Virus record (IMG/VR): IMGVR_UViG_3300043446_005775
Span: 1-64,000 of that record
DNA length: 64,000 nucleotides
Source: a virus
Reading direction: 5' to 3' (one strand)
Shown here: positions 9,001 through 36,562 of the stretch, piece by piece
How positions within the stretch are numbered: the first letter of the stretch is position 1
Layout: each line of letters starts with the position of its first letter
Position numbers and translations under genes: made by a program
The notes under the pieces: generated by a model
Database searches by the model: none
What the model saw: the letters and a program-made list of their open reading frames with translations, nothing else
What the model was told of the DNA's origin: nothing

Positions 9001-11899
9001 AACAACAACAATAACGCAGAGAATTGCAAACATTGTTGCAGCTAATATTGCCAGTCCATCACAGTTCTTTATCGCAAGCTTCACTCGTGAATCAGCAGAT
9101 GATCTTCTTGAAAGATTAAATAAGGTTTTTCAGGATGGCACAACCAAGGACAACCTGTTCTCGAAAAGCCAGGTGAATACGTGGCACGGCATGATGATGA
9201 ATCTGCTTACTTCCCCAATAAAATGGCAAATTCCCGAGGGGTTGTTGAGCTTGGGAAAAGTCTTTGATACAGAAGTGATTCCCTTGAGATTTTTCATGAA
9301 AGAGGAGTTTGTTCCCGCGCAGGGAGATGCGCCAGCATACATCAAGCAGTCAGGTCCGGCATTTACAAACGCAAAGTCTGTGGTAATCATGGATAGCGAT
9401 GAGAAATCAGATGAAGCAACAAGGTTGGCAATCATGGAGTTGCGCAAGCAAGCTTGTCAGGAGGCAGGAGTTCCGTTGGGTGTCGGCAGAGATGATCCGG
9501 AACAATTTGGCAAGCATAAGGATTCTTTTGATGTAGGCAATCTTGACAACATGGAGAATATTTTCAAGCAAATCGAAAAGATAAAGAGTTTTGGATATAC
9601 TCCTGCTCAACTTGAGTTGGCTTTTGAGCAGAGAAGAATTGCGCGAATGTCCGACAGCAGCATTCCGCCAATCAGCAAGGAAGATTTGGATCTTCTTGCG
9701 GTTTACAAAAAACATCAGCAATTGATGCAGCAGAGACACTGGATGGATCACACCGATGTCTTGAATGCTGCGTATTCAGTTCTGAGTAATGACAGAAAAT
9801 TGCTTTCAATTTATCAAAGAAAATTCAGGCAATTCTTTGTTGACGAATTCCAGGACCAAAATGGAGTACAGAGCAAGCTTCTGGAGCTTCTTGCCCACAA
9901 AAAGAATGGCGGTTCTGGAAACGTCACCGTTGTGGGAGATGCCAATCAAGCTATTTTCTCTTGGCGCGGATCTTCTTCAGATTTCCTGAACAATTTTGAT
10001 AGAGAGTATGGCGGTGTCAAGAAAACCATCAGCACAAACTACCGCTCAACACAGAATATCATTGAAACTGCAAACAGATTGCAATTGGTAAACAACACCG
10101 AAAGCAGGGCCAAGATGAAACCTCGGCCAAATGCGCCAGTGGGAGATCCGGTCCATCTGATCAAATGCGATACCCAGGACGACCAGATCAATTTCATTGC
10201 AAATCAAATACTGCAACTTATCGGAAAATCGAGACAAGAAGACGCAGTCATACCAACGGGAGAAATGATGTTCAATAAAAAAGACATCATGATTATTTGC
10301 CGCACAAATAGGGAAGCCAGGAGCATCACTGCCCAGCTCAATGCAAAAGGCATTGATGCTGCTGAAGTGCAAAGGCAACACGTAAGAAGACTTGACCGAG
10401 AAGAAGACGACAGGTCGGTCTTTGATCTGGGTTCAAGAGATACTGGCAGAAAAGTGGCAAGATTGGCTCGGTCAAGAAGGGAAACAGGATCACAGCATCT
10501 CTTTGAGGTTGTAGACGCCCTCGCCCTTGCAAATGACTACAACCAAAAACATGATGTGGATTATCCCAAAAAATGGACAAACAAGGCATTGTCCATCATG
10601 TCAACGATATCGCAGATCCTGCAAAAAAATAATGCAGGCATCAAAAAAGGAGTATTTTACAAGGATCTCATAGAGGCATATGCAGACCATCTGGAGACAA
10701 GATCACAGGATTCGCTTTTCCGCTTTTTAATGAAAAGCACTAGCGTTGCGGCCGGAAACTTGAGAGACAGGTTGACAAAAAAACAGCTATCCATTTTGCA
10801 AAGTGTTCAATCAATTGCAGAACAAGCAGCGAGAAAAAAGACAACAACTGCCGAAGGATATCTGGAGGCGATGTTTGGATCACCTACATTTTTCCAAAAG
10901 AAGCTGATGGCAATTGCAAAATCATCAAAAAATAACAAGGCATACAAATTGAATGAAGTCAGGGAATTCCTTGTTGAATTGGGAATTCTGGGAGGAGACG
11001 GAACGCAGCAGATGCGAGCCCTTTCAAGCATTCCCAAAATCCTGAGAATACAAGCCGACAGGGCACGAGCTGAGGCGGAGGCCTTCAATTCAACACAGGC
11101 CAACCAAGTGCGCGTGATTACCATTCATAAGGCAAAGGGAATGGAGGCTCCGGTTGTATTCTTGCCAAGCTGGTCAAGCGGCAACATGCCGTTGGAACAA
11201 AGCAAAACAGGCGGGGCAATACCTCGCGCCGAAGAAGCCAATCTGGGATACGTTGCGCTGACCAGGGCGAAGAGTCTTGCCTATGTGAGTTATGCCGCAA
11301 AATCAGGATCAGGGCGCGAGCAGGAAATTTCCCCTTTTGCTTCCTTGTTCCCAAAGACATCAAGCAAGATATGGGGATTTGACGGATCCTCACTCTCCGT
11401 GACTCGTGATACGACAGGCAGCCGGGCAACATCCTCTGCAGGGCCTAGTCGAGAGTTATCATATGCAGGATATGGATCGTCAGGTGGCATAGATCGGCAA
11501 GAACATGCAGCTCAATTGCTGACACTCCTTGCCCTTTTGCAAGGAAGGAGTCTCATCAGATCATCATACGCCCCTCTTGGGGTGACTCCTTGGGGAAGGC
11601 CTACATTTACGGAAAAAGGCACCATCGCCAGCGCGAGAGGCCACCTATTCAATCCCGAAAGCGAACAAGCCCCCGCTGCTGCTACTCCTCCCTCGCGCGT
11701 TAGGCATGATCCAGATGCTGATTCGGACATTGATTTGGACAATGAACCAGATTTTGATGTTTCAGCCTTCGACTCCTTGGAGAGAAGCTTGAGATTTCCC
11801 AACGTTTCCTCGTTTTTCAAGGCGAATCAACTGAAAAAATCGTTCTTTCGTGAGCAGCCAATACCAAGAGTTCCTTTCCGCGGCAAGATCCTTGTCTAG
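5..11899 (+). CDS. Giant (>=3964 aa) multidomain protein with C-terminal UvrD/PcrA-like SF1 helicase; probably truncated at the window's left edge
   Basis: Frame is open from the window edge (the TTG at 5 has no room for an RBS). SF1A motifs: ASAGTGKTT, ASFTRESA, NTWHG, VDEFQD, VGDANQAIFSWRG, TNYRS, ICRTN, TIHKAKGME, EEANLGYVALTRAK. The first ~2900 aa are not recognisable. Confidence 0.9.
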   Translation: MKRPGEIAAALCAEPPREAISLAVTPLQVSKSTHVATKVADFFAPGERGDVRPVRLDTDSETGGVGILNPVADHSVQYEGIPLSHVRRAHLSRNPTTGELEWVRGEARGRLPKVIHGTLLHPFAAADAIDAIHAGSFKDEDGNLHESHVASASPTGIVSRPASSDERFSGADISSVRTNGLLEIHGLPLFHGILAGSNAHDTTGVGAENSYYDEWVKQVQATNPGQLSGEALLGRHGRSLYATPPVVAFERPLNREISRLRQRLAFLQSKTTKLTAEGRMEMRSLEEELRSKEQLMQKIRIPDSASAMADDSDLGQSFFGIAPTLRGGMAPMYGKPSNPLRIEDLTRTVSATGGDRPYLTRGMGLFVDPSKHAGHYAQVVRAMTVPTVGVGGGLRSPNRPFSVIPTRVRVHTSVEPNTRMIPGLPNIPLRNVAALYPTIRGLVQGQVFFSDEDGVPTYVTAADNGPVLYNPRAETRASLVADGLPMYEHWGYAYTKSGTGHTLELTRLQDLKARSEIDPAVKFTDSDRQKLVKLQEEVDVRRKASDLFGYNSDTRPKIPGVPNQYGHPTIGEGPIARRAIPGLDPNAEVSKTRAVFDPLQIGTADRPSYISLSMIPAQSLDNISNTRESPYLRVLHDHDGVPDEVVRIPDRGTTTKRLSPDELTSEELAKKSFRAVVSSVGTSRYRVAMLLPSTAKHPVISTYNVRYSPQTMSYRAPAGAPNLLGQILGSVSEENNRRISQNVDQARIFEELFAARDSDTGRIFQQVIDSSNNPFAMHANLPLFEPVWDAEGNPIPGAYRQSLQASYVSRPLPGISAAEAARAGLQPIYQPPEGNIPPILLDDPYSPMSPDGTRSARGLAVYRLNSDTENGMQLLFPQNANAYFGVYDGQLRPESRRETYTYVNDTIRAAPVRQSKEGSDSTIDKHAAIELSRRLYYRRRNSAELASGQYKIIPVFEHDTQPSKKSNALMMRGWQSELMDGVSSHLETVENPSKEYVENYIIDSFAADPFANSEDKRSSISDDQARAMFNALGVFQMSQPEQFSLQEFKNWMREGLKKGKTDKEIIENRPVIGDAVFWPQDPAPPQVTTPRKKIVGAYRLFSQSRPLSLGECSISEDGRLMIPFKSPDFDQIREGQSLQLYSYNDGTKDVRYQYTPDQLTKRLLDPLLITEVMYDKRSKMAFCRTSQPIASYFGTDPDAIRKLESDLTKSFSITLHRHELHPVLPSDFVPYDGYIEQTDEPIPPDLFMKMLMGNELRDAEKEVAKNILRYFHAAATKRELGNDSEGLLRKIGVPVDAQDSHYMFASLKPEHYTWARFAADTTVDLNSPQYSEVMQLIKSMGKDTVDEISDPQQRIKIFEAIKEVAQNPEKQEKGIAEWLKQPLGQAILNFRNNRKPDADPMVQVKGDEGQLLSRTIGSLRWDPRDKQIQTGGEPITVAQHIFRMLGGGGQSAEQKTVLNGDRYSYTTEQGQQRQLSINGLVNTGNSLLLQEYKGCINDEFLKVIGFGAMADFAANLDDFDKNHSSLEYLDPTKEATGNPFDAIRKKLSLFALSDDNQEKIRLAGQIQKICDSYRNQQLRLVHERIGYYEELRDPQKAMFTALANEGIVGNFDRLQDVLSLIPGMKPQESKIIGFLGESDDFGNRMPGNSGFYRSSSNSNAYECSEAYLNPSAFQIVAGAGQNQDDEDLTFAKALEYPVIRKEVQQVARIGMELLFDPEGVGDAWEKLDEQDKSLLWTHLGLETDPSNLLKGIANYLGIDENDIRAGMMEQIKSSVTNLMSAEIANSASLTALHIQREQEKLRDSAYEAAKTKTAPRIDPPAPLVRRWSPLTNVVPHFRAYAEYGMEKTDRFEGRLPEVVAATLHPDNSFVPPMAPYSDEHELMDIPYGEGVLRGQSPFPACSDTMLQNVMRLKQDARAASRIIYWDNPAKSNDIVTVDQFDGAMFGNSFSSRWAPLRMLGQDSSDDSVSDGAVASITKQYFGIDQEDDAQTVALKIQNAILQGNALNGLLLAADVADQVDVEETVELPGHTRENPKTKNERGTGRVHRIDGIAGQLGRSKAQNGIYAVVDKSPDALKFERTGNSITIQKGLSFSWVSKGQSKIPGQIFSAQKVITDVPITISWSVQSNRININLSDLRKKTEIVSRIIDSDLTPTEEKNAQASAREHATRESNARLFSGAMPQEIPSLSSHDPRVKSAFQSQFDSSLVGTGNGFESVQNAREFELSTGWSLLHEDAIRDAFKDQRFEALIAPHASGQQGIVVATLPQQEDDEKVHAIVFIPMIPAGDTSALHDHTDHIDREGALIEERLYHQARESSYVLGLHSGSLDASSGNPGQTAAERMSRAPNFVNGSRSPLRNGKPDNIRVGRPLENETERMARTKRGGDGTPRSTPSVYGRFVVVSLDTNDFQKRDLAGSYVSFGDVDNKKAKSIEELKIKLQEARKKAKEAGIETVSNVNKRVELMTPTEKLMHAINMLEKEIRTAQLGLSEKQRKINESAEDIVVVPRESITSYWDPTIIMNHSSVAKMTPYLAYWLSQKSKRLDFSDSMKETYDHIQEHPLIDDSAKAALRDGIFSSIEERDRNTDSASANDKLLAKDHVHSRLITIPDGDSKISFLEIPDRVLKIDPTLSDRKIRFSSQQIATFLEELPSQLKKIAAENGLTVWAINGKVSEAFNYTNRAGQPLDAYGYRKKNVIIASTIGVDPMMEFITHFADFIAEKTWLVQDEMQMGQLNSVNKNYGECYTKALDWAKTKIDQAKKIRDSGFRENPDDPMSEELPREKRWIFNEILANISDQDELQDQLKVAKKLFQIYIATLLFSSGSFAESKSGKTHTYVNMPPVGWLNGAMPPPHFVSFDPVEQATALVHKNVRWEQLLNDTNDESKGIKDDAAALSTAVSDYVLSLSKTVAPEEKHINIAKLKINANTDAEQKESITYGIQPVNPSWGAELRTLEQQLKQQTGLTEQEKEQERAKISKLKKTIADAKNTGALAIIASAGTGKTTTITQRIANIVAANIASPSQFFIASFTRESADDLLERLNKVFQDGTTKDNLFSKSQVNTWHGMMMNLLTSPIKWQIPEGLLSLGKVFDTEVIPLRFFMKEEFVPAQGDAPAYIKQSGPAFTNAKSVVIMDSDEKSDEATRLAIMELRKQACQEAGVPLGVGRDDPEQFGKHKDSFDVGNLDNMENIFKQIEKIKSFGYTPAQLELAFEQRRIARMSDSSIPPISKEDLDLLAVYKKHQQLMQQRHWMDHTDVLNAAYSVLSNDRKLLSIYQRKFRQFFVDEFQDQNGVQSKLLELLAHKKNGGSGNVTVVGDANQAIFSWRGSSSDFLNNFDREYGGVKKTISTNYRSTQNIIETANRLQLVNNTESRAKMKPRPNAPVGDPVHLIKCDTQDDQINFIANQILQLIGKSRQEDAVIPTGEMMFNKKDIMIICRTNREARSITAQLNAKGIDAAEVQRQHVRRLDREEDDRSVFDLGSRDTGRKVARLARSRRETGSQHLFEVVDALALANDYNQKHDVDYPKKWTNKALSIMSTISQILQKNNAGIKKGVFYKDLIEAYADHLETRSQDSLFRFLMKSTSVAAGNLRDRLTKKQLSILQSVQSIAEQAARKKTTTAEGYLEAMFGSPTFFQKKLMAIAKSSKNNKAYKLNEVREFLVELGILGGDGTQQMRALSSIPKILRIQADRARAEAEAFNSTQANQVRVITIHKAKGMEAPVVFLPSWSSGNMPLEQSKTGGAIPRAEEANLGYVALTRAKSLAYVSYAAKSGSGREQEISPFASLFPKTSSKIWGFDGSSLSVTRDTTGSRATSSAGPSRELSYAGYGSSGGIDRQEHAAQLLTLLALLQGRSLIRSSYAPLGVTPWGRPTFTEKGTIASARGHLFNPESEQAPAAATPPSRVRHDPDADSDIDLDNEPDFDVSAFDSLERSLRFPNVSSFFKANQLKKSFFREQPIPRVPFRGKILV
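8780..11350 (+). other. UvrD/Rep/PcrA helicase domain
   Basis: Walker A at ~8981-9006, DEFQD at ~9842, motif III at ~9931, motif V at ~11119, motif VI at ~11250; full ordered motif set. Confidence 0.95.
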
Positions 11900-11930
11900 A
11901 TAGCGAACGGTGCGTCCTCTCAGACCATCA

Positions 11931-11939
11931 TGATATACT
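11931..11939 (+). promoter_or_regulatory. Candidate extended -10 promoter (TGATATACT)
   Basis: TGn-TATACT in the intergenic gap, followed by AAGGAG RBS and ATG at 11958. Confidence 0.4.
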
Positions 11940-11957
11940 AGAGCAAAGGAGAACAGA

Positions 11958-12242: not shown

Positions 12243-12262
12243 TCAAGCCCAAGGATATCTGA

Positions 12263-15200
12263 ATGAGTGACAACGAACCAGTGGCAACAGAAAGTGGCAC
12301 TTCGTATCTTGCATCTGATATCCATGCCTTGAGCAAAACCAATGATACAGCAGAAAGAAGCATTGGCGTACTTGTCGACAGGCCAGTTGACAGCAGTGCT
12401 GAGCCGCAAACTGATGCCCCTCCGCTGGCGTCAAGTGGAGTGGCATTCGTGCCACATGTCACACCCATGCAACCGAAGGGCCCCATCGGGAGTGAGCAAA
12501 TCGGCGGCAGCGCTGAAACCGATGCTCTCGTTCGCAAGTCGCCGATTGGTCGAGCTATTCAAAGAGCCATTGCAGACGGCGGCGGCGCTCAGGAGCGACC
12601 GCTCTCTGAAGCGAATGTTGCAGTTCCCGGAGGGTTCAAGTACGATGTCAATGGACAGCCAATACTTGTTCGGCCTTCGGGAACCGGACCTTTCACCGTC
12701 ACTCTTGGAGCGAACAGTCCAGCAGTTTCAGTAGCTGATCCGCACGGCGTGGCAGATGTAGCCGCGAGTCACTTGCAAAATGCAAGCATACAAAGGGCTG
12801 CTCCCACCATAGGGACAGCGGCAGATGTCGCAATTGGACAGCACCTGCAAAGACAAGATCATGCAGCGCAGCAGATGCGTCGAAGAAGTCGCAACGCGAC
12901 TGATGATTCAGAATCAGGAATCGGATTTAACGGCAGGGATGAGTTTGGCATCAAGACCATCGACAAGGTCCGATACCAGAGGCTTCTGGATAGAGAAGCC
13001 ACATCATGGAACACACCGCTGGATGCGGATTTTGATTTCGAATTTGTGCCCGGAAAGGGCGCTGATGCGCAAAAAGTCCTTTTGGATATAGTGCCTACAC
13101 GCGACAGTTCAGGGTCATACCTGAAGAAACAACAGCAGGCGGAGGCTTCGCTGCTTCGTCCTGAACGTGAAGCCGCAGAATTGGCATACGCAAGATATCA
13201 CGAGGAGAAAGGAAACCTGGGCTTCGTAGGGAAAATCAATGCCATGCGCAATGGAATCATTGACACGAGCAATGATTCACAAGAATCAGTATCTTATGCA
13301 ACGCACGACAGGACTGTGTACAGGGTTTTTTCGTTTGAAGACAAGGGAAAAAGGAAGGTCGTCATCCGGGAACCCATTATTCCGGGAGCGATAGGAGGCA
13401 CTCCTGCCGGGGAAGAGGCTAGCGTGGATACAGCTTCTGGAGTCCTTTTCCCAGCAGATATCAATCAGGACTTTTCAACGCTTTGGCAATTTCTTGACTC
13501 TCGTGACAACAAGAGAAGCGCAAAGTCAGAATCAATTCTCAGTGCATATGTAAACCGGGTCACAGAAATCGCCAAGGCAAGGTGGGAAGAACATATTGCC
13601 GGAAAAGAAGCAATCGCGGGTCGGCCTCCCATAGTCCAGGCAAGAGAAGGCCTTGTTGGAATAACTCGTGAATCAGGACTCAGTGGAGAGGCACATGCAG
13701 ATGCCGCTCTGGGCTCCGAAGACAGGAGGGGGCCAGATGACGAGGTCGCAGTTGCCAGGCGAATTGCCACACAAGCAGGCGAAGTCGCCCATCAAGCAAA
13801 CCTTAGGGAAATTGAAAACAAAGTTCCTTCAACAATGGATGATGATCATTTAGATGCAATTATTCCAGAATTGGCAGGCAGTTACACGCCGACGGCCCCG
13901 GTCATCGAGACTGATTGGCAAGCAGAAGCCGCATCGCTGTCGGCGGACAAAATCCAATCTGCCGCGGATGCAGTGGAGCGCGATCTGCTTAAGTCGCAAT
14001 CTGCTGTTTCCTCAAGCGAGATGAATGACACTTTTGAAGATGTGAATATTCCGGGATTGAAAAAACGCAGTGAATTTCCGTCACTTGCTGCGTATTTCCA
14101 GGCGGTGAACAAGCGGTACCGGCAAAGCAAAGACTCCGTAGAATTGTTCAATTTGAATATTCGTGTTTACAAGGCATTTATTGCCCAGAAAAATAGTCGA
14201 AGAATTGAAGCGTTCAGAAGATCAAAATTAAGCTTGCATCCGCTTGTGGAAGACAGTGCAAGAAGCGGAACGGCACGATTGCCTAATGTTTCAGCCACGC
14301 TGATGCAAATGGCTTCTTCCTCTTCAAAGGCAGACAATCTCGAAAGCATTGCCATGGCCATTCCAGCAGTGGCAACCGCGGGAATAATTGACGTTCTTCG
14401 CACACAGCAAGGCTCTTCCGACTTTCAAAAAGAGGCTGGCGCGGCAATTGCAAAAACCCTGACCGATTCTCTCGAATCCGCATTGAATCAGCGCCTGAGA
14501 GATGAGCATCTGATTGACAGGGCAGGGTTTGATACGGCGTTTCCTCAAATCGGCCTCAACAATTCCTCATCGGTGTTGTCAGGGTTCTTGAATGATACGC
14601 TGAAAGCCGCGATACCGCAGGATTCACTGGGTTTCAATGAGGAGTTCCGCACAAGGTTCTCAGATGAATATGAGAACAGGCTGAGAATCTCGCAGGCAGC
14701 TCTCTTGTCTGGCAATAAAGAAGCGATACAGGAAGCAAAAGATTCCATCTCTGAATTTGGGAAAAAAGAATTCGTCATGACCAAGGACGAAGAAAAGACT
14801 CTTAAAGCCATGCGAAAAAAGGGAAATTCCTTTATCTCCGATTGCATAGCATGGATGGAAAAAATTGGAAGAAGTGGCAAGCAATTCAAGCTACCGGGAA
14901 AAGACCCCGCAATTGTTTTATCGGAAGCGGCAGAGAAAGGCGACTTCGTAACAGTGTTGCGAGTCTTGGCGATGAATCTTGCCCCAAAGGAATATGTCAC
15001 TCTCAACCGCGATGACAACGCAAGAATGCCTATTGAGAAGCCATCAGAACAAGATCTGGCTGCAGCGAGGGAAAGAATTTTCCGCCTCGTTCATGATCTT
15101 TTGTCAAGTGATCAGTATGCAGACGATGTCAGAAAAGAAGTGCTTGCCACAGAGAATTATAATCTTTATCTACACACAGCAACTGGTCTTTCAGAGCTTG

Positions 15201-18200
15201 TTGGAATCGGTTTCTCAATGGCTGACAGGAAGACAAAGGAATGGCACTTTAGTCCTATCAGGTACATGGCAAACGCCGACATTATGAAGTTTGCAAATGA
15301 AAGAGCAAAAGTTGCCATTGAAAATGGCCTGCGGGGTGACTACCTCTCCAATTACGTACGCAATGCTCTTGCCAAGGAGTTCGATGGCGATCCACGCATC
15401 AGGGTGCCGGTGCTCCCCTCGCGTCGCCTAAACTCGGAGGGTAAGATCCACGTGGCTCTCTCTGTAGGAAATGAGGCGAAATCGATCAATATCGAATCCT
15501 ATGCTATGCAGGCAATACGGACAGTGCAGAAAGGGATTCAGGATCAATTAGAGAGGCACCTCAAGTCAGGAAAGTCACGTGAGACATTCAAGGGGGATTA
15601 TTCCAATCTTGGCTTGGATGAACCAAGAGCTCCGACAGGGTTGTTGCCAAAGCGATTGCCAGATGATGCCCCTGAGAAATTGAGGGATGACTGGCAGCAT
15701 GCGGCTGGGTTGTACAAGAAAAGCCAACGCGCGGAATATTACAAATCGCTTGACGCCAAAAGGCGAGCCGCGCTTGACATGTGCATTGGCAAAAACCCGG
15801 TGATTGATTCAGGTGATTTTGACTGGGGAAATGATGATCACAAGGCTTTGCTTGGAGATTGGCTATTTTCAAGATATCCGCAAGAGTCCTTGGGGAAACT
15901 CACGACGAGAAAAACGCAACAAGTCCCCGTTGCCGCGTACATGCAGCAATTTCTCCAGAATCCTGCTGATGGAGAATTGATCAGAAAGCTGGAGGCAGCC
16001 CTTGGAAACAAGCCTGTTGTCGTTGACAGGAAAACATTTGATCCCGCATTGAAGGCGAAGGCAACTCCTGAGATGCTGCTGGCAACCAATCCTCTTTGGT
16101 CCGCGTTTCTTTCGGCCAATGACCCGGAAAAATTGATCAATCATCCGTTTCAGCTTTCATTTTTCCATTCCATTTTTCAATCGGGATTGAAAAAAATAGA
16201 CGGACAATCATTGAAACCTGTTGAGGGAAGAACCAAATCAGCATTTGATGAGGAAGTAAATCGCATTGCAGGCTGGATAGAAGGCCAGCTGGGAAGAAGA
16301 GCAATTGAAGCGGGAGCTGCAGACAAGAAAATCAAAGCATCTGAAACTGTGTCCTTTTGGTCACAAAATGCTGTCTTGGCAGAACACACCGCGGCTTTCC
16401 TTTCTGCTGGAAACGAAGAATTAATCAAAGAGATAGAGAGGCAATTGCTTCAAAACCCTGGCGACCAGAAATTGCAGGACGATTTGAATGAACTGCAAAT
16501 AATCCAGGAAGATTCCGAGAAGGATCCAAGCAGAAAATCGATTAGATTCACACGTCGGCAGAGGGATGCCAACAACAACGACCTGGGAGCAGTTGCTCCA
16601 GATATGTTAGCCGATTATGTCCAGGCAAAATCCCGAATCATGCGCGACTACTCGCCTGTGAATGATTTGTCAACCCATCAGCCAATTCCCGTGGGAATTC
16701 TTGCGGGTATCGTCAAGGACTCTTTGCTGAGGTCACGCAATCCATCCGATTTCATTCTTGACTTGTCTCCGGCAATACCAAGAGATTCACAGGCAACTTC
16801 ACTGGCAGCCATCGATTCCGTTGCCGCAGATGTGCAAAAAGAAATAGATCAGAGAAAATCACAACAGGAGCTTGAGCAATCAGCAATGGGGCCAGCGAGC
16901 CTTGTTCCAGTAACCGAATCGTCAGTGCGGGAAATCATGAGTGAATCAAAGAAAAAGGGAATCATTCCAATAGGAAGATCAAGTCATGCATATCCGGCAA
17001 CGCTCAGGGGGAATCATGGAAAATCCAAGGAATTCCCTGTGATCTATACGTATGGATTCAGCGAATTGGTGGAATCTCCCAGCATTGTGCATTTGATTAG
17101 CGATCCCATTGCTGCTTCCGCAGGAGCTCAGTACGGAGCAATTAGTTCATTGGGGGATGTGCAAAATGCAATAAGGACTGTCAGCGACTCACTCGGATCA
17201 ATCGATGGCATGGATAGCGAAGCGCCGCTTCTTACCAGAAAACAGCACATTGACATGCATGTCACTACGTGGATGCAAAAATTGCAGACTTCTGAAAATT
17301 TCGGAGAGATTGACAACATAATCAGGGAACTGAACAAAGTTGACCAAAACCAACAACTTGACCTTTCTGACATGTATAGTTCTGATTGGACAAAGAAATT
17401 TTCAAAACTGCTAGAGAGATATTGCCAATCCAACGCCATAGCAATGATCACACCGGCTGATTCCGCTTACCCGCCATACCTGCTCAAGAGCCCCGGACGA
17501 AGACAATCCGGTGATGACGATCCTACTCCCTACACGCCCTCCGTGTTGTTTGTGAAAGGAAATCCACGCGCATTCCAACAAGTGCGCGATAATTCCGAGA
17601 GGGTTGTAACATGCATTGGCGTTGGAGAAGGAAAGACACACGGCGAGGATGTAGAGCACGGAAATGCCGTTTCTCAAAAAGCATGCGAAGTTGTCACGCG
17701 CCTTTCTTCGGCGTTCAAAGACAAGTCGTGGACTATTGTTACTTCATTGACTGGAGGCACAAACGATGCCATTCTTCAAACTGCGTTGCGATGGCAAATG
17801 CCAACAATTATCGTCGCTCCCTTTGGATTCAACACTTCTGCCGAATTGGGCTCATTTGGCCCAAGATTCAAGGATGCAAAGAGCAGGCTAAATGATGCAT
17901 TGGACAAAAACGCCGTTGTCATGACGGAATGCTTGCCTGGAATGGGAATGCAGAGACCAAAAAATGGGGCAGGCAGGGATTCTGTTCGCGAACATCAGCG
18001 CTTGCTCGCGGAACTGTCTTCTGCGACGATTGTCATTTCGGCGACTGGCACTCGCAATTGGGTTCAGACAGAAGGACAACGGAAAGGAATAAGTCCTGAG
18101 TATCTCGCCGCGATGATTGACGGATCGAGCGTGTCGAAGGTATTGAACGCCAAAGTTGAGGATTCCATCCCGATCTATGTTGCGCAACAGGCCGCAAGGC

Positions 18201-25723: not shown

Positions 25724-25726
25724 CAG

Positions 25727-29300: not shown

Positions 29301-30323
29301 GAGATTCTTTATCATGTCTATCGTTGCGACACGGATTTCCTCGGCAATTACCAGACAGCGGCAAGCATTCGCAGGGATGCCGGGAAACCGCTTCTCGATG
29401 CTGGCGACATACTGGATCGCGCGATCCAGTATATCACGTCAAGTACGCTGTCAAAGGTCTCTCTTCAAAGAAAGAGAGTCTCAAGGACATTCCAGGATGT
29501 GGGAACTTTCTGGTCTGATATTGCCCCCAAGGATACCAACTCGGAGAAAGTCATCAGGTCGCTAAGAATTGGTAGCGACTATGAAATTTCATCCCGACCG
29601 ATAAACAGAACCGCATTCTCGCCTGAATATCTCCTGAAGGCAGAGGCAATCATCAAGGATGTGAACAAGAATACCGATGCGTCATTTGCCAGAGCCTTTG
29701 GGATGTCCTATGATGGAAACACGGGAAGGATAGCGCGGTGCTTCCACTGGGCAAGCATCGATACGGTGCAGACCATATTCCTTGAGGGGATGATGCCATA
29801 CGCATCCATTGATGGAAGAAGCATTTACGCTTCGGTCAACTCTGCATCGCCGCTTCCTGTTCCGCTCTATAACGATGATTACGTGGCTCTTGTCGTCTTC
29901 GATTACCATTGTGGCAATATCATCTCAAAGAAATCCCTTGAGCTCCTCAGCAAGCAATACGTGCAGTGGAAGAAAGCGAAATTGGGAACGTCCGTGTTTT
30001 CCCTGAGCCGCGATGAAAATGACTTGATTGATAACGCAAAAGTGGGGCTTGACCTCGGCTATGCATCCTCCCTTGATTCTCATGCAGGGAAAAAGATACT
30101 TTGCTGCTTCGACACAAACAGGATTGCGCTCATCACGGCAATGGCCGTTCCGATGAAAGTCGCGACAAAAGACCTGTCGCCAAGCTTCAAAGGCTCTCCC
30201 CTGGATTTTTATGGTCGCGCCCATACTGGTCAATTCCGCAAGATCGCCTTGCCTGAATTGTCCTATGAAGATTTGAAAATAGAAGAAGCGAATGATCTTT
30301 GGTTAGGTGACATCAATGAATGA
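26385..30323 (+). CDS. 1312 aa protein with HD phosphohydrolase domain and C-terminal degenerate PARP-like ART fold
   Basis: HD domain (28920-29335): IVDH..LAMLLHDVGR..GHAHYSA..IYHHD..CD. ART-like region (29730-30135): CFHWAS..VQTIFLEG..DGRSIYAS..VVFDYHCG..LGYASS..CCFDTNRI. Confidence 0.85.
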   Translation: MNRIVKSIIEISDLPDDEESDSSKKQPASDYHHLWSKNTAAFMGIPIDEILPDCVSTSDKIAAMDRSFMNEFHGILSQSRQSFQMIDLLGKKILSYSKLYCYAGKKILRADDMRMMIDVFARSFGPEEMKTLAKLMRTTYKGIKREMDSLRVSKKLDFPYRHPSLSIHEDSIYPHGQGSYGQSHSWVYGKQSYVEYTNIMAKPEGKAIHPFLLIEMHLSKTGNNGLSVESGIIGQSFSIDGSGNIEKNTSNTLSYAWQDYLEEHMKSTSSWAQSTSKDGIKKASIEIAHPKVGIPWFSAVETSMDSQLMFDTEKNMQIFLGKRKKIGHLTYADTANDDAESRSRRLLEFLGRYIASEIVAYGYASHAGMSTPHCCEVPPNGNPWLSFRVSGRISSVPSISTGQSAYPDNYLSLPNDSEDQTNGYSPMRVDWTQFQKETYHIVVQPSVTRFMHDAFNYHVDVRILPNGSGAAVVLFSDSFNFIDEMRVTMPDPDRATVIGQVALANAVGIRNSPTYDDLGCKVLPVPIALSEQRTASRSSFSVGAELSVFESMPRDFISYHINSASTVMYKTSDMSQLRGNITNALKMFNTRTIDQNNLSSFISWNDFGSYCGEHFIENFNDSFMKSAHAYFTPASLQSLLKSMQQYFSAHQLNDFGIHDIPEVKEKNENTFVSLSPKTLLKTSSLSNGLSYAVYLVRHVPHQSVTESMIPIEKTMFNSLFSFYMTCVNPNGHEICVYQPSFNMKAGNYPRYASLADIVCGYFPDFICWMTNEGLRLHKSSQISSASYARIAEMHKVDPASVAKDIEMPFSPDASMISGQKEIVRRWITYHFPSLAIINQGGPRKGGSIVDHLMESALAVDTPRGKDNYSPSESLNDENVARLLRLAMLLHDVGRSFPSEGGVGPVEKGHAHYSAALARTILSQFYLKEREIAAIEKWIYHHDIFEKAVMGAYGTIDEASLHIAKIAETIDDAEILYHVYRCDTDFLGNYQTAASIRRDAGKPLLDAGDILDRAIQYITSSTLSKVSLQRKRVSRTFQDVGTFWSDIAPKDTNSEKVIRSLRIGSDYEISSRPINRTAFSPEYLLKAEAIIKDVNKNTDASFARAFGMSYDGNTGRIARCFHWASIDTVQTIFLEGMMPYASIDGRSIYASVNSASPLPVPLYNDDYVALVVFDYHCGNIISKKSLELLSKQYVQWKKAKLGTSVFSLSRDENDLIDNAKVGLDLGYASSLDSHAGKKILCCFDTNRIALITAMAVPMKVATKDLSPSFKGSPLDFYGRAHTGQFRKIALPELSYEDLKIEEANDLWLGDINE

Positions 30324-30978
30324 TAGGATGGAACGCTATGTCAATGATGACAAGTCCGCATTGATTGAGAAATACTCATCAATGATTCCCGTGAATATCA
30401 TGAACAGAAGCAAGGATTCATCCACCTACACCATCCTGTTGGGAATAGAGCGGCTTGATCTCCCTAAACTGACATCGGGCGATGCCGTTGTTTGGTGGTA
30501 TTGCATCCAGCTGAAGACGTGCAAGACGTGCGTCTTTCTTTCGGAAAAACAAAAGGAATTCCCGTATCAGATGTGCAACAATCCGAAGATATCCATTCGC
30601 CTGTTTGAAATCATTTCACGAAGCATGTCGACTTGTGATGAGTGGCATGCGGGGTTTTCTGAAGAGCGCATCGAAAGCGAACGATCAATGGGATATTCGG
30701 AGAACCTTTACGTTCTTGCGGCATTGATCAAGATGGGCCTCCGAGACATGCCGAAAAATATTCCCATACCTGCAATTGGAGCGGTAAAAATGTTACAGTT
30801 TTCCATAGAGCTTGCCGCTGCCGCGGACATCCATAACGCCATTGTTCATGAATACGTACAATTGTGTGTCTTGAAGCGATCTGGACATGATATTGACGAT
30901 GAATATTTTTCCGTTGTTTCACAAAGGGAATTGCCCTTGATACAAGGGAATAAATTCAATACCAATCTGCTACTATGA
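30316..30978 (+). CDS. Hypothetical protein with four-Cys cluster (possible Zn/Fe-S site)
   Basis: CKTC..MCNNP..TCDEW; the ATG at 30316 follows AGGTG and overlaps the upstream gene end. Confidence 0.75.
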   Translation: MNDRMERYVNDDKSALIEKYSSMIPVNIMNRSKDSSTYTILLGIERLDLPKLTSGDAVVWWYCIQLKTCKTCVFLSEKQKEFPYQMCNNPKISIRLFEIISRSMSTCDEWHAGFSEERIESERSMGYSENLYVLAALIKMGLRDMPKNIPIPAIGAVKMLQFSIELAAAADIHNAIVHEYVQLCVLKRSGHDIDDEYFSVVSQRELPLIQGNKFNTNLLL

Positions 30979-30997
30979 AAATTGTCCGGAGAAGAAG

Positions 30998-33900
30998 ATG
31001 GTTCAGTTGACAAAAGAGACTTCCTGGTCGGGAAAATGGGATGAGGAAAATGACCGCGCTTCCCTGGAGCAGGAGAAGCGACGGATCGCTGCGTTATCAA
31101 AAAGAATTGGCAGGATGGTCACCTCGGCAGATTTCGAGCTTCTCGCTGGCCCGAAGGCAACGAGAGCCGGGATTGAGCAGGCGCTAGGGCAGACGCTTGA
31201 CAGTGGCCCCAACGAACGCGTCGGACAGGCTGACCTCATGATCCTGCTTCGCCGAATGGACAAGGCAATAAGGAAAAGCCTTCCGCTCGAAGCGCACGGC
31301 AACTCCGCGTTTCCAGTTCGTGATGAACGCTACCGTCGGCCAGATGGAACAGTAAATGAGCATCAAGGGGAACATACGGATCGTTACCTTGCCGGGATTG
31401 CAAACAACCATGGCGAAGAGGCAGCAAATGAAGTTCGCCAAGCCATCCAGAGGGGCGATGTCCTGAAGGTTGCAAACAAGTACAAGAGAGATCGCGTTCA
31501 GGAGGGCACACGGGCAAGCGAAGACTCCGAATCCGATGATTGCGAGCATCCGGGCGGCGATATTGACGGGTTCATTCATCCCGAGTATCGAGCTAGAGGA
31601 TGGGATCCGGACACGAAGGCTTTCCAGGCAGAATATGCCGGTATGGGGGTTCGTGATTACTATTCCGAAATGTATTCACGCCTTTATCCCAAGGAAATTT
31701 CGGACCAGATCGTGCAGGGATTGTTTGGTGATCGGAATGAGGAGAATTCAAGGCCCCCCGACATGAAGCAAATACGCAGGGAGCGTCCCAGAAGACAGAA
31801 ATTGGATATGCCCAGCTATTCCGATGATGAATGGGAAGGCCTTCTGAACCAAGATCCCGGAAGACGCGCAGGGCGGCGGATCTATGGAGATGCTGAGCGG
31901 GATATCTATTCCAATGATCCAAGAGATGACCAGTCACCGGAGGATGATGAATCTCCCCGGGAGCAGCAATCAATTCCCACTGAAGAGAATCCCACTCCTG
32001 ATGGTGGCCCGATTGAAGAAACAAGCACTGACGAACACCAGCAACATCGAAAGGATCCCAACTTCGTCAGGATTGATGACCTGTCTCCATTCCGTGGTTT
32101 CATCAAGAAGGCGCGACAATATCTCAAGACAAAAAGCGATGTTGCTCCGGGAAAGCAATCCCATGCATTGTCACGTGCTCTTTTGCGCGGGGAACTCACA
32201 ACAAGGGCGCTCCCTTCCATCAGGGCGCAGGCCACGAAGGAGGCTATCAACAACAATGTCCGCTCACAGGTGAATCAGAACGAGGATCCTTTGGAGGGAA
32301 TGAACAAGAGAACACTCGGGAAATACTACCGGATGGCCATACAGAGGATCTTTTCCGCGGCAAAAAAGCAAGCAGGAAACAGGAAGCGTGTTCAGCGCCA
32401 AGAACAAAGTCAGCGAACCAAGACATACATGAGAATGCCTGAAACGCGTCCATCACTCACTCAGGAAGGTACAGGCAGGGCAGTTGCCCCTAATGCCTCC
32501 TCGTCCGTGTCCACGAACAGTGGCCCAATTATTCCTCGGGAATACAAGGATGCGTTGCAAGAATACAATGACGAGTATTACTTGCCTTACGACACTGACA
32601 ATTTTCATAACCTGACGGAACTGGGCTTGGTCGATGAGGACGGGAATTGGGTAAGCAAAAAAATGGCACCCGTTCTCAAGGAAAATGGATTCTGGGAGAT
32701 TGAATCCGTAGGCGAAACGCAAAAGTCCTTGATCGGCAGAATGCGCAAGGCTTTGCGAAAAGCCGAGGATGCGACGCGACCCTTGGCCGTGGAACATGTT
32801 GTCGTAAGTGATAAGTATACGTCACGGAAACCGACTTATCTTGATTCGTTCCCGCCTTCCGGAAGACAATCCTCACCTGATGACGGCGATGTCCGGGATT
32901 TGACCGGCCGTGGCTCAGATAACCAAAAGCTGGTGGATACAGCTGGACTCCAGAACAGGCGTGACAGCTTTTGGCAAAGCGGATCAACGGCGCTGCCGAG
33001 TATTGCGCCAAACAGGTCGCCTGATCCGAACAAGAAAGATCGATTGCTCTCCTACAATCGGGATACCGATGCATGGGAAGGAAAGCTGACGCGTGTTCAT
33101 TCGGGAATTCTCCATCCCGCAGTGGCGCTTGGGAAATTTGGCTATGACTTGGCTCGGGCTGGCATTGCTGGCCTTACAACGGTTGATCTCAATGATGTGG
33201 GACACCTCGCCAATAATGCGGCAAAGGATGCCACCAGTGTCGCACAGGATACACTTGCCGGACTTGGCTCGGGACTCAAGCGCACAAAGGATTGGGTCAA
33301 GCAGACCATAGGGCCAAAACTGGGATTCGGACCGGATCAGAGCACTGCCAAGGAAACAGTTGGGGACGGTGCCACGAATCCTTACGGCGCTGAGGTGACG
33401 GGAATTGGCGGGGAAGCGCCACACAACAGCATGAGCACTCAGGATCTTTGGGATAGTAGCGATCCCGTGCACAAGGCCGCACTCATTGATCGGCTCAGGC
33501 AGCATCCTCGCACTCGGGCCAAATGGGATAGATGGAATAACGCCGTCCCTGGACCAAGAAAGGATGCCGCAAGGCAAGAACTGAATGCAGCCGTGGCAGA
33601 TCTGATCGAAGAAGAGAAGGCCGCTGCGCATAAAAATACACCCGATCAACAAAGGATCGAGAGAGCACGGAGTCGGGAAGACGTAAGAAAGCTATCTATG
33701 GAAGAGCCGCAGTTACTTGCCGGAATCCTCAGCAACTGGATGAGGGCTGGAGATGCTGTGCCCGATCCAGGAGCTCCAAAAGATGCCAACCCTAGGTACC
33801 AGCGAACATTAACCAAAGATGAGCAGGTAAAACTCAGGCAAAAAATGCTCGAAAATCCTGAGTTAGGAGCGTCCATTGCGCAATCATTGCTTGCTGGCAT

Positions 33901-36544
33901 GAGAAAGAAGCCGACCACAACGCGTGATCCTAAGGCTCAGGCAGCACAAGACACAAAAATAGCATTGCTAACTAAAATTGCAAAAGGCGACCCCTCGTCG
34001 GGGTTGTATAACGCCCTCATGGAAATTATCAATCAGATGGCCACCGGCACTGGAGACACGAATCCAAATGCGATTGACTCAACTACTACTGATTCAGCTG
34101 TTCAAGCAGAGCAAAACGCACGAATGAGCGCAGAGATTGACCTCAGAGAACACAGCAAAAATCATGGCGTCGAATCAAAACAATTCCTGGATGCCGCTAA
34201 TCGGCATCCAGAAATACAAAGAATAGACGATTTGATCGATGAGAGAAAACAACAGATAGGCGCAGCGGGAGGAGGGAACCGTGGAGCAGTACAAGAGCTG
34301 AGAGATACTTTGAATGTTCTTCAGCAAAGAAGAGCCGAAACCATACAAAGATTCAAGGAACAATTCAAGCCGAGGGCCCCTGAAGAGGCGCAGGCTGAAC
34401 TTGACGCTCCTGTTACAGTCTCTCCTGATCTAGAGTCTACACTCAGAACCAATGGCGATAGATTTGGCGTTGACTCAGTGGAATTTCTTGATTCCGCTAA
34501 TAACCATCCAGAAGTAAAAAATTTAAACGACTTGATTATTGCTCTAAAGCAGGAACTAAGAACGATGGGATTGAGCGCGGATCCTAATGAAAAAGCGAAG
34601 AAGAAGAAAGATTTGGAAGCTCTTCAGGAACAAAGATCCGAGGCCATAAAAAAATTGCAGGAACAATTCAGGCCCAAGACCGCTAAAGAGGTGACAGAAG
34701 AGGCAACAAGACTTATGGCTGGGGATGGTCCGCCAGTAAATGCAACTCCTGAGATGAGGGCAGCGGCAGAAGCATGGTTGGCCAGTATGCTCGCTGGTCG
34801 TGGTGCACCCCCTGTTGCACCCCCTGCTGGTGGTGAACTCCCTGCTGGTGAACGCCCTGCTGGTGAACTCCCTGCTGAACGCCCTGTTGATGGTGCCGCT
34901 GTTGATGGTGCCGCTGCTGGTGAATCCGATGGTGTTAAACCCGCTGCTGCTGATGCCGCTGCTGGTGAATCCGATGGTGTTAAACCCGCTGCTGCTGATG
35001 CTGCTGGTGGTGTATCCGAGCCCCAAAACTTCTCCGGGCAAGACCTTAACGGTCGTGATTTCTCGGGACAGGATTTGACAGGTGCCAACCTGTCCAGTGC
35101 CAACTTGACCAATGCCAAACTGCCCAATGCCAAACTGTCCGGTGCCGATCTGACAGGTGCCAACCTGTCCAGTGCCAATCTGACCAATGCCGACCTGCCC
35201 GGTGCCAAACTGCCCGGTGCCCACCTGCGCGATGCCGACCTGCGTCGTGCCGACCTGACTGGGGCCGATCTGACCGGGGCCAGACTGGCCGGGGCCAAAC
35301 TGACCGGGGCCAGCCTGACCGGGGCCAACTTCACGGATGCCGACCTGACTGGTGCCGACCTGAAGTATGTCGTCCTGCTGGATGTTAACCTGACTGGCGC
35401 CGACCTGACTGGTGTCTCCCTGTCTGGGGCAAACACGATGGGTGCCTACACGCTAGACGACTCTGGTAAAAAAGTTCGATTCGTTGCTCCGGTTAGCGGT
35501 GGTACCTCTACCACTCCTGCAGATGTTGAAAACGTTGCAAGAACGGCTTTGGAAAATATGGGACCCGGTGGTGATGGCAAAACTGACGATCCTGTAGATC
35601 TGGTCAACGTCGATATAAGCGGCATGACTCCAGAGCAGTTGCAAGCACACAAGGAAGCCATAGAAAAAGAAATGGATGAAGAATCCAAACGGCTGGGGAA
35701 TCAATTTGGTGGAAGATGGCATTTCGCACCCCAGGAAGAGAGAAAGAGACTAAATGCCCTTTCTTTGGCGCATACGTTTGCCATAAGGGCGATCAACGAC
35801 AGGCGTTCTACTCCTCCTCCTCCTGCCGCTGTTGAAACCGCTGTTGAACGCCCTGCTGAACTCACTCCTGAAAAGGTTGCAAGTGCGACTTTGGGCGATC
35901 TGGAACCTACTAAAGATGTAGTTGATGTCGATATAAGTGACATGAATGAAAGTCAATTAAAAAGACACTTGAAAAACATAAACGACGAAATGACAAAGAT
36001 TTCCGCAGAAATCATGAATCTTCCTAATCAATGGAAAAGCGCAAGCATGGAACAAATAGCGAGGATCAATGCCCTTGAGGGGGCACGTGTGGATGCGGAC
36101 AAAAAAGCAAGGAGTTTTAGACCTGTTGGAGTTGCGACAGCAGCAACACGTCAACCCACGTCACCTGAGGAAATTGCCTCGCTCCTCAACAGAACCGGCG
36201 CTAGGCGTCCTGACACCGCCGAAAGTCTGCGCCCAACACTGGAGACCAGTCCTGTATCCATGGAACAACTTGAGACGCAAGTGGCGTTACTTCCCGAAGC
36301 GGACAGATCAGCCATGCGGGAGTCTATCGCACAATTGAGAACTTATCAAGCTGCGGTGGACGCCGCGACGGATCCAGAAGAAAGAGCTGCTTACCAAGAA
36401 GAAGTAAATAGAATGATTGAGGCTTTGCGAACGAAGGGAATTCTGAAGAGTTCATTATCAAGAAAAATGCCGAGGAAGTTCTCAAAGTCATCCCTGTCAA
36501 ATGATCCCAAAAGACTCATCATGTCAATCTACAATTCATTATAA
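30998..36544 (+). CDS. 1848 aa largely disordered/helical protein with pentapeptide-repeat domain; probable internal virion protein
   Basis: GGAG RBS; 28 pentapeptide repeats, internal duplications, and K-S/K-A motif clusters at the N-terminus, near 32715-32765 and at the C-terminus. Confidence 0.85.
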   Translation: MVQLTKETSWSGKWDEENDRASLEQEKRRIAALSKRIGRMVTSADFELLAGPKATRAGIEQALGQTLDSGPNERVGQADLMILLRRMDKAIRKSLPLEAHGNSAFPVRDERYRRPDGTVNEHQGEHTDRYLAGIANNHGEEAANEVRQAIQRGDVLKVANKYKRDRVQEGTRASEDSESDDCEHPGGDIDGFIHPEYRARGWDPDTKAFQAEYAGMGVRDYYSEMYSRLYPKEISDQIVQGLFGDRNEENSRPPDMKQIRRERPRRQKLDMPSYSDDEWEGLLNQDPGRRAGRRIYGDAERDIYSNDPRDDQSPEDDESPREQQSIPTEENPTPDGGPIEETSTDEHQQHRKDPNFVRIDDLSPFRGFIKKARQYLKTKSDVAPGKQSHALSRALLRGELTTRALPSIRAQATKEAINNNVRSQVNQNEDPLEGMNKRTLGKYYRMAIQRIFSAAKKQAGNRKRVQRQEQSQRTKTYMRMPETRPSLTQEGTGRAVAPNASSSVSTNSGPIIPREYKDALQEYNDEYYLPYDTDNFHNLTELGLVDEDGNWVSKKMAPVLKENGFWEIESVGETQKSLIGRMRKALRKAEDATRPLAVEHVVVSDKYTSRKPTYLDSFPPSGRQSSPDDGDVRDLTGRGSDNQKLVDTAGLQNRRDSFWQSGSTALPSIAPNRSPDPNKKDRLLSYNRDTDAWEGKLTRVHSGILHPAVALGKFGYDLARAGIAGLTTVDLNDVGHLANNAAKDATSVAQDTLAGLGSGLKRTKDWVKQTIGPKLGFGPDQSTAKETVGDGATNPYGAEVTGIGGEAPHNSMSTQDLWDSSDPVHKAALIDRLRQHPRTRAKWDRWNNAVPGPRKDAARQELNAAVADLIEEEKAAAHKNTPDQQRIERARSREDVRKLSMEEPQLLAGILSNWMRAGDAVPDPGAPKDANPRYQRTLTKDEQVKLRQKMLENPELGASIAQSLLAGMRKKPTTTRDPKAQAAQDTKIALLTKIAKGDPSSGLYNALMEIINQMATGTGDTNPNAIDSTTTDSAVQAEQNARMSAEIDLREHSKNHGVESKQFLDAANRHPEIQRIDDLIDERKQQIGAAGGGNRGAVQELRDTLNVLQQRRAETIQRFKEQFKPRAPEEAQAELDAPVTVSPDLESTLRTNGDRFGVDSVEFLDSANNHPEVKNLNDLIIALKQELRTMGLSADPNEKAKKKKDLEALQEQRSEAIKKLQEQFRPKTAKEVTEEATRLMAGDGPPVNATPEMRAAAEAWLASMLAGRGAPPVAPPAGGELPAGERPAGELPAERPVDGAAVDGAAAGESDGVKPAAADAAAGESDGVKPAAADAAGGVSEPQNFSGQDLNGRDFSGQDLTGANLSSANLTNAKLPNAKLSGADLTGANLSSANLTNADLPGAKLPGAHLRDADLRRADLTGADLTGARLAGAKLTGASLTGANFTDADLTGADLKYVVLLDVNLTGADLTGVSLSGANTMGAYTLDDSGKKVRFVAPVSGGTSTTPADVENVARTALENMGPGGDGKTDDPVDLVNVDISGMTPEQLQAHKEAIEKEMDEESKRLGNQFGGRWHFAPQEERKRLNALSLAHTFAIRAINDRRSTPPPPAAVETAVERPAELTPEKVASATLGDLEPTKDVVDVDISDMNESQLKRHLKNINDEMTKISAEIMNLPNQWKSASMEQIARINALEGARVDADKKARSFRPVGVATAATRQPTSPEEIASLLNRTGARRPDTAESLRPTLETSPVSMEQLETQVALLPEADRSAMRESIAQLRTYQAAVDAATDPEERAAYQEEVNRMIEALRTKGILKSSLSRKMPRKFSKSSLSNDPKRLIMSIYNSL
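34910..34999 (+). repeat. Perfect 45-bp tandem duplication (AAAGESDGVKPAAAD x2) within a 15-bp-unit low-complexity tract
   Basis: gccgctgctggtgaatccgatggtgttaaacccgctgctgctgat occurs at 34910 and 34955. Confidence 0.95.
35024..35443 (+). repeat. Pentapeptide repeat array A(D/N)Lxx, 28 units
   Basis: QNFSG QDLNG RDFSG QDLTG ANLSS ANLTN ... ADLTG VSLSG ANTMG. Confidence 0.97.
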
Positions 36545-36562
36545 TTGTGCAAGGAGAAAGCA

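Follow-up and report, generated by a model that had tools for sequence, protein, structure and literature searches.

The opening stretch of virus record IMGVR_UViG_3300043446_005775 raises the question of why three very large proteins, encoded just ahead of a set of phage head genes and with no visible relationship to each other, should end in tails built along the same lines, and what those tails might do. The window considered here is the first 64 kb (positions 1 to 64,000) of this 77-kb IMG/VR record, which has an estimated completeness of 47%; almost all of its genes lie on the + strand, and no near-identical cultured phage was found. A sequence-only reading had proposed that the three C-termini form a modular, cleavable packaging tag, analogous in role to the capsid-targeting sequence of phage T4. 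The tails are best read as protease-removable basic C-terminal propeptides, a variant of known head-protease propeptide processing that acts on presumed capsid cargo. A cleavable propeptide of this kind is well supported, whereas a packaging tag, perhaps operating through binding to a polyacidic scaffold, is no more than plausible.

Tail architecture and the probable motif of the prohead protease

The three giants, termed G1, G2 and G3, are all encoded on the + strand. The G1 gene (5–11899) has its 5′ end off the contig, leaving 3964 amino acids (aa) to be seen, and G2 (12263–25723) and G3 (30998–36544) are 4486 and 1848 aa long. The G1 tail (11770–11899) contains LER↓S (11777–11788), FFK↓A (11813–11824) and LKK↓S (11831–11842), where the arrow marks the presumed cut; the G2 tail (25580–25723) contains IAK↓S (25595–25606), FAK↓S (25634–25645) and LLR↓S (25685–25696); and the G3 tail (36430–36544) contains ILK↓S (36440–36451) and FSK↓S (36479–36490). 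The tails measure 37–47 aa, with two or three hydrophobic-x-K/R-S sites within the last 45 aa of each protein. In each, the main pair of sites is 13–18 aa apart and leads into a basic, Pro-containing stretch and then a short hydrophobic patch or end, confirming the layout originally noticed. The bodies of the proteins, as had also been claimed, are without visible similarity, BLASTP returning no match among G1, G2 and G3 at E ≤ 1.

Measured against the rate of such sites elsewhere in the same protein, the clustering at the C-terminus gives P = 0.011 for G1, 0.00068 for G2 and 0.001 for G3 (Fisher combined 1.5e-6). Two or more sites within the last 45 aa are found in 4/40 called genes of the record, namely the three giants and the prohead protease only. 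The tails also stand apart in charge, with the last 40 aa carrying +7 in G1, +12 in G2 and +9 in G3; for all other genes this value lies between −10 and +4, the exception being the generally basic product of p222 (+9). In single-sequence AlphaFold2 predictions a low-confidence coil holds both G3 sites, directly between the last helix predicted with confidence and a short one at the terminus, and the prediction for the G2 end is too poor for use (mean pLDDT 41.5).

The prohead protease that shares the double-site layout (40979–41959, + strand, 326 aa; phrog_1028, E 1e-29) is followed on the same strand by a putative scaffold (41970–43517, 515 aa, net charge −39) and the major capsid protein (43541–45469, phrog_752), and the motif of the tails recurs in all three. 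Hydrophobic-x-K-S is observed six times in the protease and five times in the scaffold, against 0.7 expected in each case, roughly an eightfold excess and a count reached by 0/300 shuffles of either protein. Two of the six protease sites lie in its last 18 aa (41903–41914 and 41933–41944), the first of them not being conserved in relatives. Among relatives fetched by means of the capsid protein, the same tetrad is seen 46 times against 6.7 expected in 11 proteases and 70 times against 8.4 in 12 scaffolds, and K-A is enriched in these scaffolds as well (56 observed, 11.5 expected). Neither K-S lacking a hydrophobic residue at P3, the third position before the cut, nor hydrophobic-x-E-S is enriched in the relatives' proteases and scaffolds. 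The capsid protein itself has a single hydrophobic-x-K/R-S site, LNK↓S at aa 17–20 (43589–43600), which is present in the window and in 10/11 relatives, and cutting after the Lys would therefore release a 19-aa propeptide.

The assignment of the 515-aa acidic protein as a scaffold is a putative one from position, composition and motif density, the protein having no family match. It consists of a polyacidic core (aa ~115–245, ~130 residues, net charge about −50), a Pro/Gly-rich linker, and a helical part rich in K-S and K-A sites, of which the protein has five and four, respectively. One of these, LTK↓S (43335–43346), lies just upstream of a conserved C-terminal domain and is kept in all relatives; the net charge in eleven relatives ranges from −37 to −84. 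A 519-aa antisense open reading frame (41988–43547) overlaps the scaffold gene, and is almost certainly spurious.

The presence of one motif in the protease, where it would serve self-processing, in the scaffold, where it would serve degradation, and at the capsid propeptide is the classic signature of a prohead protease, on the strength of which this protease lineage very probably recognises hydrophobic-x-K followed by S or A. HK97 cleaves between Lys and Ser, and the herpesvirus assemblin between Ala and Ser; by analogy with both, the cut is taken to fall after the Lys. The proposal that the tails are cleavable is thereby well supported, albeit indirectly, the tail motif being enriched in the protease and scaffold and conserved at capsid aa 17–20, and we consider it probable that the tails are in fact cut.

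The same motif can be followed into a cultured lineage. In tblastn comparisons with the prohead proteases of Herelleviridae, the three best matches (H16–H18) reach 31–32% identity over 56–59% of the query (E 7e-15 to 3e-16), and the remaining matches 26% identity. Sequence homology thus places the protease, which has no Pfam match at E ≤ 0.01, with the SPO1/Herelleviridae type and not the gp21 type. In phiEF24C, f2b1 and EalM-132 (L047, L048 and L049), which represent three Herelleviridae subfamilies, hydrophobic-x-K-S is the top-enriched tetrad in the protease and in the protein at the scaffold position, with observed and expected counts, respectively, of 3/0.55 and 6/0.49 in phiEF24C, 5/0.56 and 8/0.67 in f2b1, and 4/0.59 and 13/0.90 in EalM-132. 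This suggests a Lys-specific cleavage rule across the Herelleviridae-type clade. No published cleavage specificity for Herelleviridae prohead proteases was found in the literature searched, and the occurrence of the motif in these phages provides a cultured system in which the rule is directly testable. Should it hold, the head-protease rule of this phage group, cutting after hydrophobic-x-Lys and before Ser or Ala, would be readable from sequence alone, and would flag the proteins that travel in the capsid.

Conservation and exchange of the tails

Orthologues of the giants preserve the tails to a degree that depends on the relative. In a G2 orthologue, P0006 (69% identity), the full tail is kept and is 82% identical, and in a 4056-aa orthologue of G1, P0011 (73%), the two sites and the end are preserved. 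Between P0011 and G1 the tails are 71% identical, the acidic linkers just upstream 52% and the folded bodies 84%. In G001, the closest longer relative, the head proteins are 75–90% identical to those of the window, and the giants have diverged, to 23–28% identity over the ~900 C-terminal aa of G1 and G2 that were aligned. The tail of the G001 G2 orthologue is 17% identical, still with two sites and a charge of +10, and the G001 G3 protein has two sites and agrees with G3 in its final six residues. A conserved motif in an accessible terminal segment, as expected of a protease substrate, is accordingly found in P0006, P0011, the G001 G2 and G3 proteins and two G3 variants, P0008 and P0009, with the G3 sites lying in predicted coil. 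Searches of viral contigs for further orthologues, using the last 600 aa of each giant, gave helicase-motif matches or nothing, and degenerate DNA patterns of the three tails had no matches there.

The G3 family gives the clearest view of how the tail relates to the segment ahead of it. P0009 is 100% identical to G3 over the first ~1260 residues, falls to 16–41% over most of the following ~500, and returns to 100% in the last 30 residues, the 100 aa ahead of the identical tail being only 34% identical. In P0008 the whole pentapeptide region is gone and the G3 tail is identical. Scanning metagenomes with the G3 tail retrieved three contigs, L035, L036 and L037. In L035 and L037, which retain one of the two G3 sites, the tail is preceded by ~220–250 aa without nucleotide homology to the window, homology beginning at 36456, and in L036 a short fragment resembling the divergent end of P0009 precedes homology that sets in at 36437. 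Neither junction is more than about six codons away from the first G3 tail site, and from both of them homology extends ~9 kb through the head genes to the capsid gene. The part of G3 carrying the pentapeptide repeats (aa ~1260–1815, ~34800–36440) acts as an exchangeable cassette, with the conserved tail as its 3′ border.

It could be argued that the G3 tail is conserved only as the place where recombination joins happen to fall, or through constraint on the DNA at the start of the next gene, and not for any function of the protein. The junctions at 36437–36456 and the homology running on from them into the downstream genes are what this would predict, p222 begins immediately past the G3 stop codon, and DNA identity between the window and the variant contigs, at 93% for the tail, is only at the 66th percentile of windows within the ~9-kb block (protease 92%, scaffold 91%). 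Constraint from the next start codon, however, would account for ~20 nucleotides and not for 90, and the tail is more conserved than the adjacent p222 gene (78%). Joins or DNA constraint also leave the tails of G1 and G2 unaccounted for, as well as those on unrelated proteins of two other records (described below), and this explanation is considered very improbable. The tail, then, was kept where the adjoining segment had been deleted, had diverged or was different, the upstream body in the variant contigs having no homology to the window; together with like tails on two further unrelated proteins, this bears out the proposed modularity in part.

The distribution of the tails was assessed across six related records, in which proteins of at least 700 aa were divided into those encoded upstream and those encoded downstream of the capsid gene on its strand, and a tail was defined as at least two sites in the last 60 aa together with a net charge of +5 or more over the last 40 aa. 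Such tails were found on 7/19 large upstream proteins and on 0/53 downstream ones, the latter including sheath, baseplate and fibre proteins (Fisher P = 3.4e-5, somewhat inflated by orthologous pairs). Two of the seven, a 784-aa protein in record G003 and a 1702-aa protein in record G004, both of them distant relatives, are unrelated to G1–G3. The tail therefore recurs on at least five unrelated bodies and is confined to the module ahead of the head genes, where it is not universal. Three more proteins with double C-terminal sites in another relative, G002, were set aside, as their number is at the level expected by chance in 173 genes (a rough estimate); two of them were scanned and had no Pfam match.

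Propeptide, loading signal or neither

That the giants are cargo of the capsid is suggested by their context and content. They lie on the same strand as, and directly upstream of, the genes for a portal-like protein, the protease, scaffold, capsid and sheath, as expected of late genes. G1 includes a UvrD/PcrA-type helicase (aa ~2980–3765), G2 a DprA-like/SLOG domain and a NADAR domain, and G3 pentapeptide repeats (aa ~1345–1560); a further large protein between G2 and G3, here G1312 (26385–30323, + strand, 1312 aa), has an HD domain and no C-terminal tail. Two domains are thus recognised in G2 and one in each of the others, most of their length being unannotated. Polyvalent proteins, as described by Iyer et al. 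(2017, PMC5512222), are very large and multidomain, carry conflict-related domains, are encoded beside head genes and, in the part of that survey drawn on here, are predicted to travel in the particle and to be delivered together with the DNA. The giants may be packaged polyvalent proteins, as their domain content and late-gene position fit these predictions. The same part of the survey links phage examples mainly to MuF or portal fusions and contains no description of protease-site tails (PMC5512222); no MuF domain was detected in the giants. An enzyme made late, moreover, would presumably help against host defences only by being taken along into the next cell. If so, the three giants, endowed with helicase, NADAR/SLOG and DNA-mimic-like pentapeptide domains, would be among the capsid travellers, and would probably act against host defences at infection.

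The reading favoured here takes the tails for disordered, basic propeptides that the prohead protease removes from the C-termini of capsid cargo and that perhaps bind the scaffold; as a whole it is in our estimation evenly balanced between right and wrong. The sequences themselves establish the motif statistics and conservation, the charge of the tails and their confinement to large proteins upstream of the head genes; cleavage, its position after the Lys, packaging of the giants and scaffold binding are deduced. Under it the giants would be made late, along with the head proteins, and would enter the assembling prohead, where the uncut tail would most likely hold the cargo by charge on the strongly acidic scaffold core, much as the T4 capsid-targeting sequence functions from the opposite terminus. 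The prohead protease would then cut the tails at hydrophobic-x-K↓S/A, by the same rule by which it would remove the 19-residue capsid peptide, fragment the scaffold and trim itself. Two or three sites close together would yield tail peptides small enough to exit the shell, and the giant body (~200–500 kDa) would remain inside the head for delivery with the DNA. That the tails act as a loading signal is somewhat doubtful. More doubtful still is the stronger version, in which the basic multi-site tail is, throughout this clade of uncultured myoviruses, a transferable loading signal that docks proteins of any size, up to ~500 kDa, on the polyacidic scaffold, is clipped, and moves between bodies by recombination at the tail boundary; it would then be a charge-based equivalent of the T4 tag at the C-terminus. 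Were it true, a short transferable loading tail would offer a practical handle for loading foreign proteins into phage heads.

A number of observations weigh against this reading, and these concern first the tails themselves. Under a harsher null, in which each 45-aa tail is shuffled, the clustering of sites gives P = 0.076 for G1, 0.014 for G2 and 0.174 for G3, with a Fisher combination of ~0.01; as shuffled tails keep their K/R/S-rich content and yet weaken the P values, composition explains part of the site signal. Smith–Waterman comparison of the three tails does not rise above shuffles (P = 0.12–0.52), and a profile hidden Markov model (HMM) of the tails, which had been suggested as a check, retrieves its training sequences only. 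The tails are therefore non-homologous, and what had been called the same architecture holds for motif, charge and composition and not for sequence. A likeness between the tails and the scaffold C-terminus was tried and rejected (P = 0.48–0.74), as was a co-variation of scaffold acidity with the presence of tails, all scaffolds of the clade being acidic regardless of the tails nearby.

The tails could also be left intact, as basic and disordered ends with nucleic acid or some other partner as their ligand, the motif arising from a K/R/S-rich composition. The weak significance of G1 and G3 under the composition-preserving null, a likeness that lies in composition rather than sequence, and the retention of only one of the two G3 sites in L035 and L037 all speak for this. 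Yet the two sites of the G001 G2 tail have outlasted its divergence, the hydrophobic P3 residue is required in the tails as it is in the protease and scaffold, the protease C-terminus has the same double-site layout, and basic multi-site tails are confined to large proteins upstream of the head genes. On balance an uncleaved tail appears improbable. A still more remote suggestion is that the tail is a degradation or quality-control signal, marking unpackaged copies for host proteases and removed from packaged ones. The ends are hydrophobic and follow basic residues, and removal by the head protease would indeed spare packaged copies; however, the three ends differ, and the double sites and strong positive charge would go unexplained, so that this is held to be very unlikely indeed.

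The remaining difficulties for loading by the tail concern its absence from some proteins and the presence of candidate signals at the other end. The G001 orthologue of G1 ends without any site, and in G002, which is 97% complete, the three largest proteins of the module have no double-site tails. Given these and the tail-less G1312, the tails cannot be the sole route into the head, and the expectation that they would be conserved in orthologues is borne out for P0006, P0008, P0009, P0011 and G001 G2 and G3 but fails for G001 G1 and the large G002 proteins. Short leaders at the N-terminus, 6–8 residues long and following the pattern M-x(2-5)-hydrophobic-x-K↓S, occur on G1312 (26385–26405, ending in IVK↓S at aa 4–7), on both full-length G1 orthologues, those of P0011 (ending in FRK↓S) and G001, on the G001 orthologue of G1312, and in the head module of G002 (L031–L033) on three proteins, which are 2566, 226 and 524 aa long. 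G2 and G3 have no such leader, and have sites at residues 90–94. In G3 the site is IRK↓S (aa 91–94), within a conserved N-terminal segment of ~110 aa, and the N-terminal ~120 aa, rather than the tail, are the most conserved part of the G3 family.

These features suggest an alternative in which the tails are cut by the protease, with loading effected by N-terminal elements, either the short leaders or the conserved N-terminal segments of G2 and G3, ~93 aa long and each with a site at its end; the tail would then serve otherwise, for instance by keeping the protein inactive or tethered until maturation. The leaders, the sites at aa 90–94, the conserved G3 N-terminus and the tail-less orthologues are all consistent with this, and in phage SPN3US the eight non-protease substrates all have N-terminal propeptides, the protease alone having a C-terminal one (PMC10052503). 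On the other side, G2 has no short leader and its site at aa 90–93 is not conserved in G001, and similarity among the giants' N-terminal segments is marginal at best (P = 0.03–0.99). A tail acting as an inhibitor of a particular domain is also hard to reconcile with the G3 tail, which was kept despite exchange or deletion of the segment before it, indicating a role independent of the adjoining domain. Loading from the N-terminus is considered unlikely. The propeptide reading is retained, while the packaging tag of the sequence-only reading is reduced to a plausible suggestion by the lack of homology between the tails, the HMM that found no new members, the tail-less orthologues and the T4-like leaders on G1312 and the G1 orthologues.

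Known systems and the surrounding genes

No known system accommodates the tails as a family member, since in each the defining features are shared only in part. In function the T4 capsid-targeting sequence comes nearest, and in position the C-terminus of the HK97 protease, the tail of the herpesvirus scaffold and the encapsulin peptides do. In T4 the cargo is basic at its tagged end, the scaffold core is acidic, and the peptide is discarded after loading. A like charge arrangement is seen here, in the basic cargo tails and acidic scaffold core. The tag of T4 (on IPI–III and Alt, with gp21 as protease) further resembles the tails in being a terminal peptide on unrelated cargo that ends in the head protease's own motif (PMC9026906, PMC10052503), cleavage in the present case being presumed. 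The T4 tag, however, is N-terminal, ~10 aa long, has one site (L/I-x-E, for a Glu cutter of the gp21 type), and is similar between cargoes, whereas the tails here are C-terminal, 37–47 aa long, have two or three hydrophobic-x-K↓S/A sites and are non-homologous. The short N-terminal leaders resemble the T4 tag more closely than the C-terminal tails do.

HK97 offers a precedent at the C-terminus. A segment at the C-terminal end of its maturation protease brings a protein that is not part of the shell into the prohead, and foreign proteins can be carried in by it. This encapsidation region was reportedly described by Duda, Oh and Hendrix in 2013 (J Mol Biol 425:2765, cited in PMC12749128). The protease in the window ends in the double-site layout of the giants. 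A pattern defined post hoc, [KR]-S-[LS]{1,2}-S-x(1-3)-[KR]-M, has three matches among the record's 25.5 k residues, each of them between double sites, in the G2 tail (25595–25645), the G3 tail (36440–36490) and the protease C-terminus (41903–41944). It was not found in G001 or G002. Its distribution is a hint that the tails mimic the terminus of the protease itself. The partner of the HK97 segment is the long delta domain of the capsid protein, whereas here the capsid propeptide is only 19 aa and there is a separate scaffold.

In herpesviruses the C-terminal ~25 aa of the scaffold, which hold an internal protein to the shell, are cut off by assemblin at the M site (V/L-x-A↓S). The protease is of the same structural lineage, and it shares the hydrophobic P3 residue and Ser at P1′, immediately after the cut; the peptide is, in contrast, on the scaffold itself and not on cargo, and has one site, with Ala and not Lys at P1. 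Encapsulin cargo-loading peptides are short C-terminal peptides that direct unrelated enzymes into a shell of HK97 fold. They are uncleaved, share a recognisable consensus, and belong to a system without protease, scaffold or portal; across the cargoes here, the tails being dissimilar and their HMM returning its training sequences, no C-terminal consensus is seen. The phiKZ-like phage SPN3US, with its gp245 protease (A-x-E), is similar in processing many large head-packaged proteins, its ejection and inner-body proteins, and in having multi-site propeptides that are cut to small fragments (PMC10052503). Its motif ends in Glu where that of the window ends in Lys, and the cargo here is far larger, at up to 4486 aa. 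Basic propeptides with several sites at the C-terminus of a cargo protein were not described in the model systems checked, the SPN3US cargo propeptides being N-terminal (PMC10052503).

The gene order of the window is G1, G2, p221, G1312, p223, G3, p222, a Vsr/DUF559-type nuclease, p490, protease, scaffold, capsid and sheath. The capsid protein has distant kin among the capsid proteins of Herelleviridae, Thermus phages and Bacteroides phages, and we take p490, from its position, as a candidate portal. G2, G1312 and G3 are each followed by a gene of 221–223 aa (25727–26392, 30307–30978 and 36545–37213), with start and stop codons that abut or overlap, and the synteny of these genes is retained in G001 and G002. 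The idea that they encode paralogous adaptors was rejected, as the three are not detectably paralogous. The last of them, p222 (36545–37213, + strand), starts directly after the G3 stop codon, encodes a very basic protein (+18), and is the first gene of a block conserved together with the head genes. On the reverse strand of G003 (L050–L056), a 765-aa gene lies beside that of the 784-aa tailed protein and has a p222-like domain fused inside it, from which it follows that the p222 family also forms part of larger proteins in the module; the C-terminal end of this 765-aa protein is basic, and has MAMR↓S and F-A-K-A.

The Vsr/DUF559-type endonuclease gene (37213–37812) lies between p222 and p490, within the head module, and is 46–82% identical in relatives. 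Further downstream, the tail sheath protein is 1043 aa long, with more tail genes beyond it. Right behind the sheath gene are two adjacent paralogous genes (50911–51585, 224 aa, and 51616–52284, 222 aa), whose products have near-identical N-termini and similar C-termini, and are probably duplicated tail-tube proteins. The gene at 53566–56706 encodes a 1046-aa protein with a C-terminal VgrG3-like domain (E 6e-53) and a weak GH46 match, which is probably a tail-associated cell-wall hydrolase.

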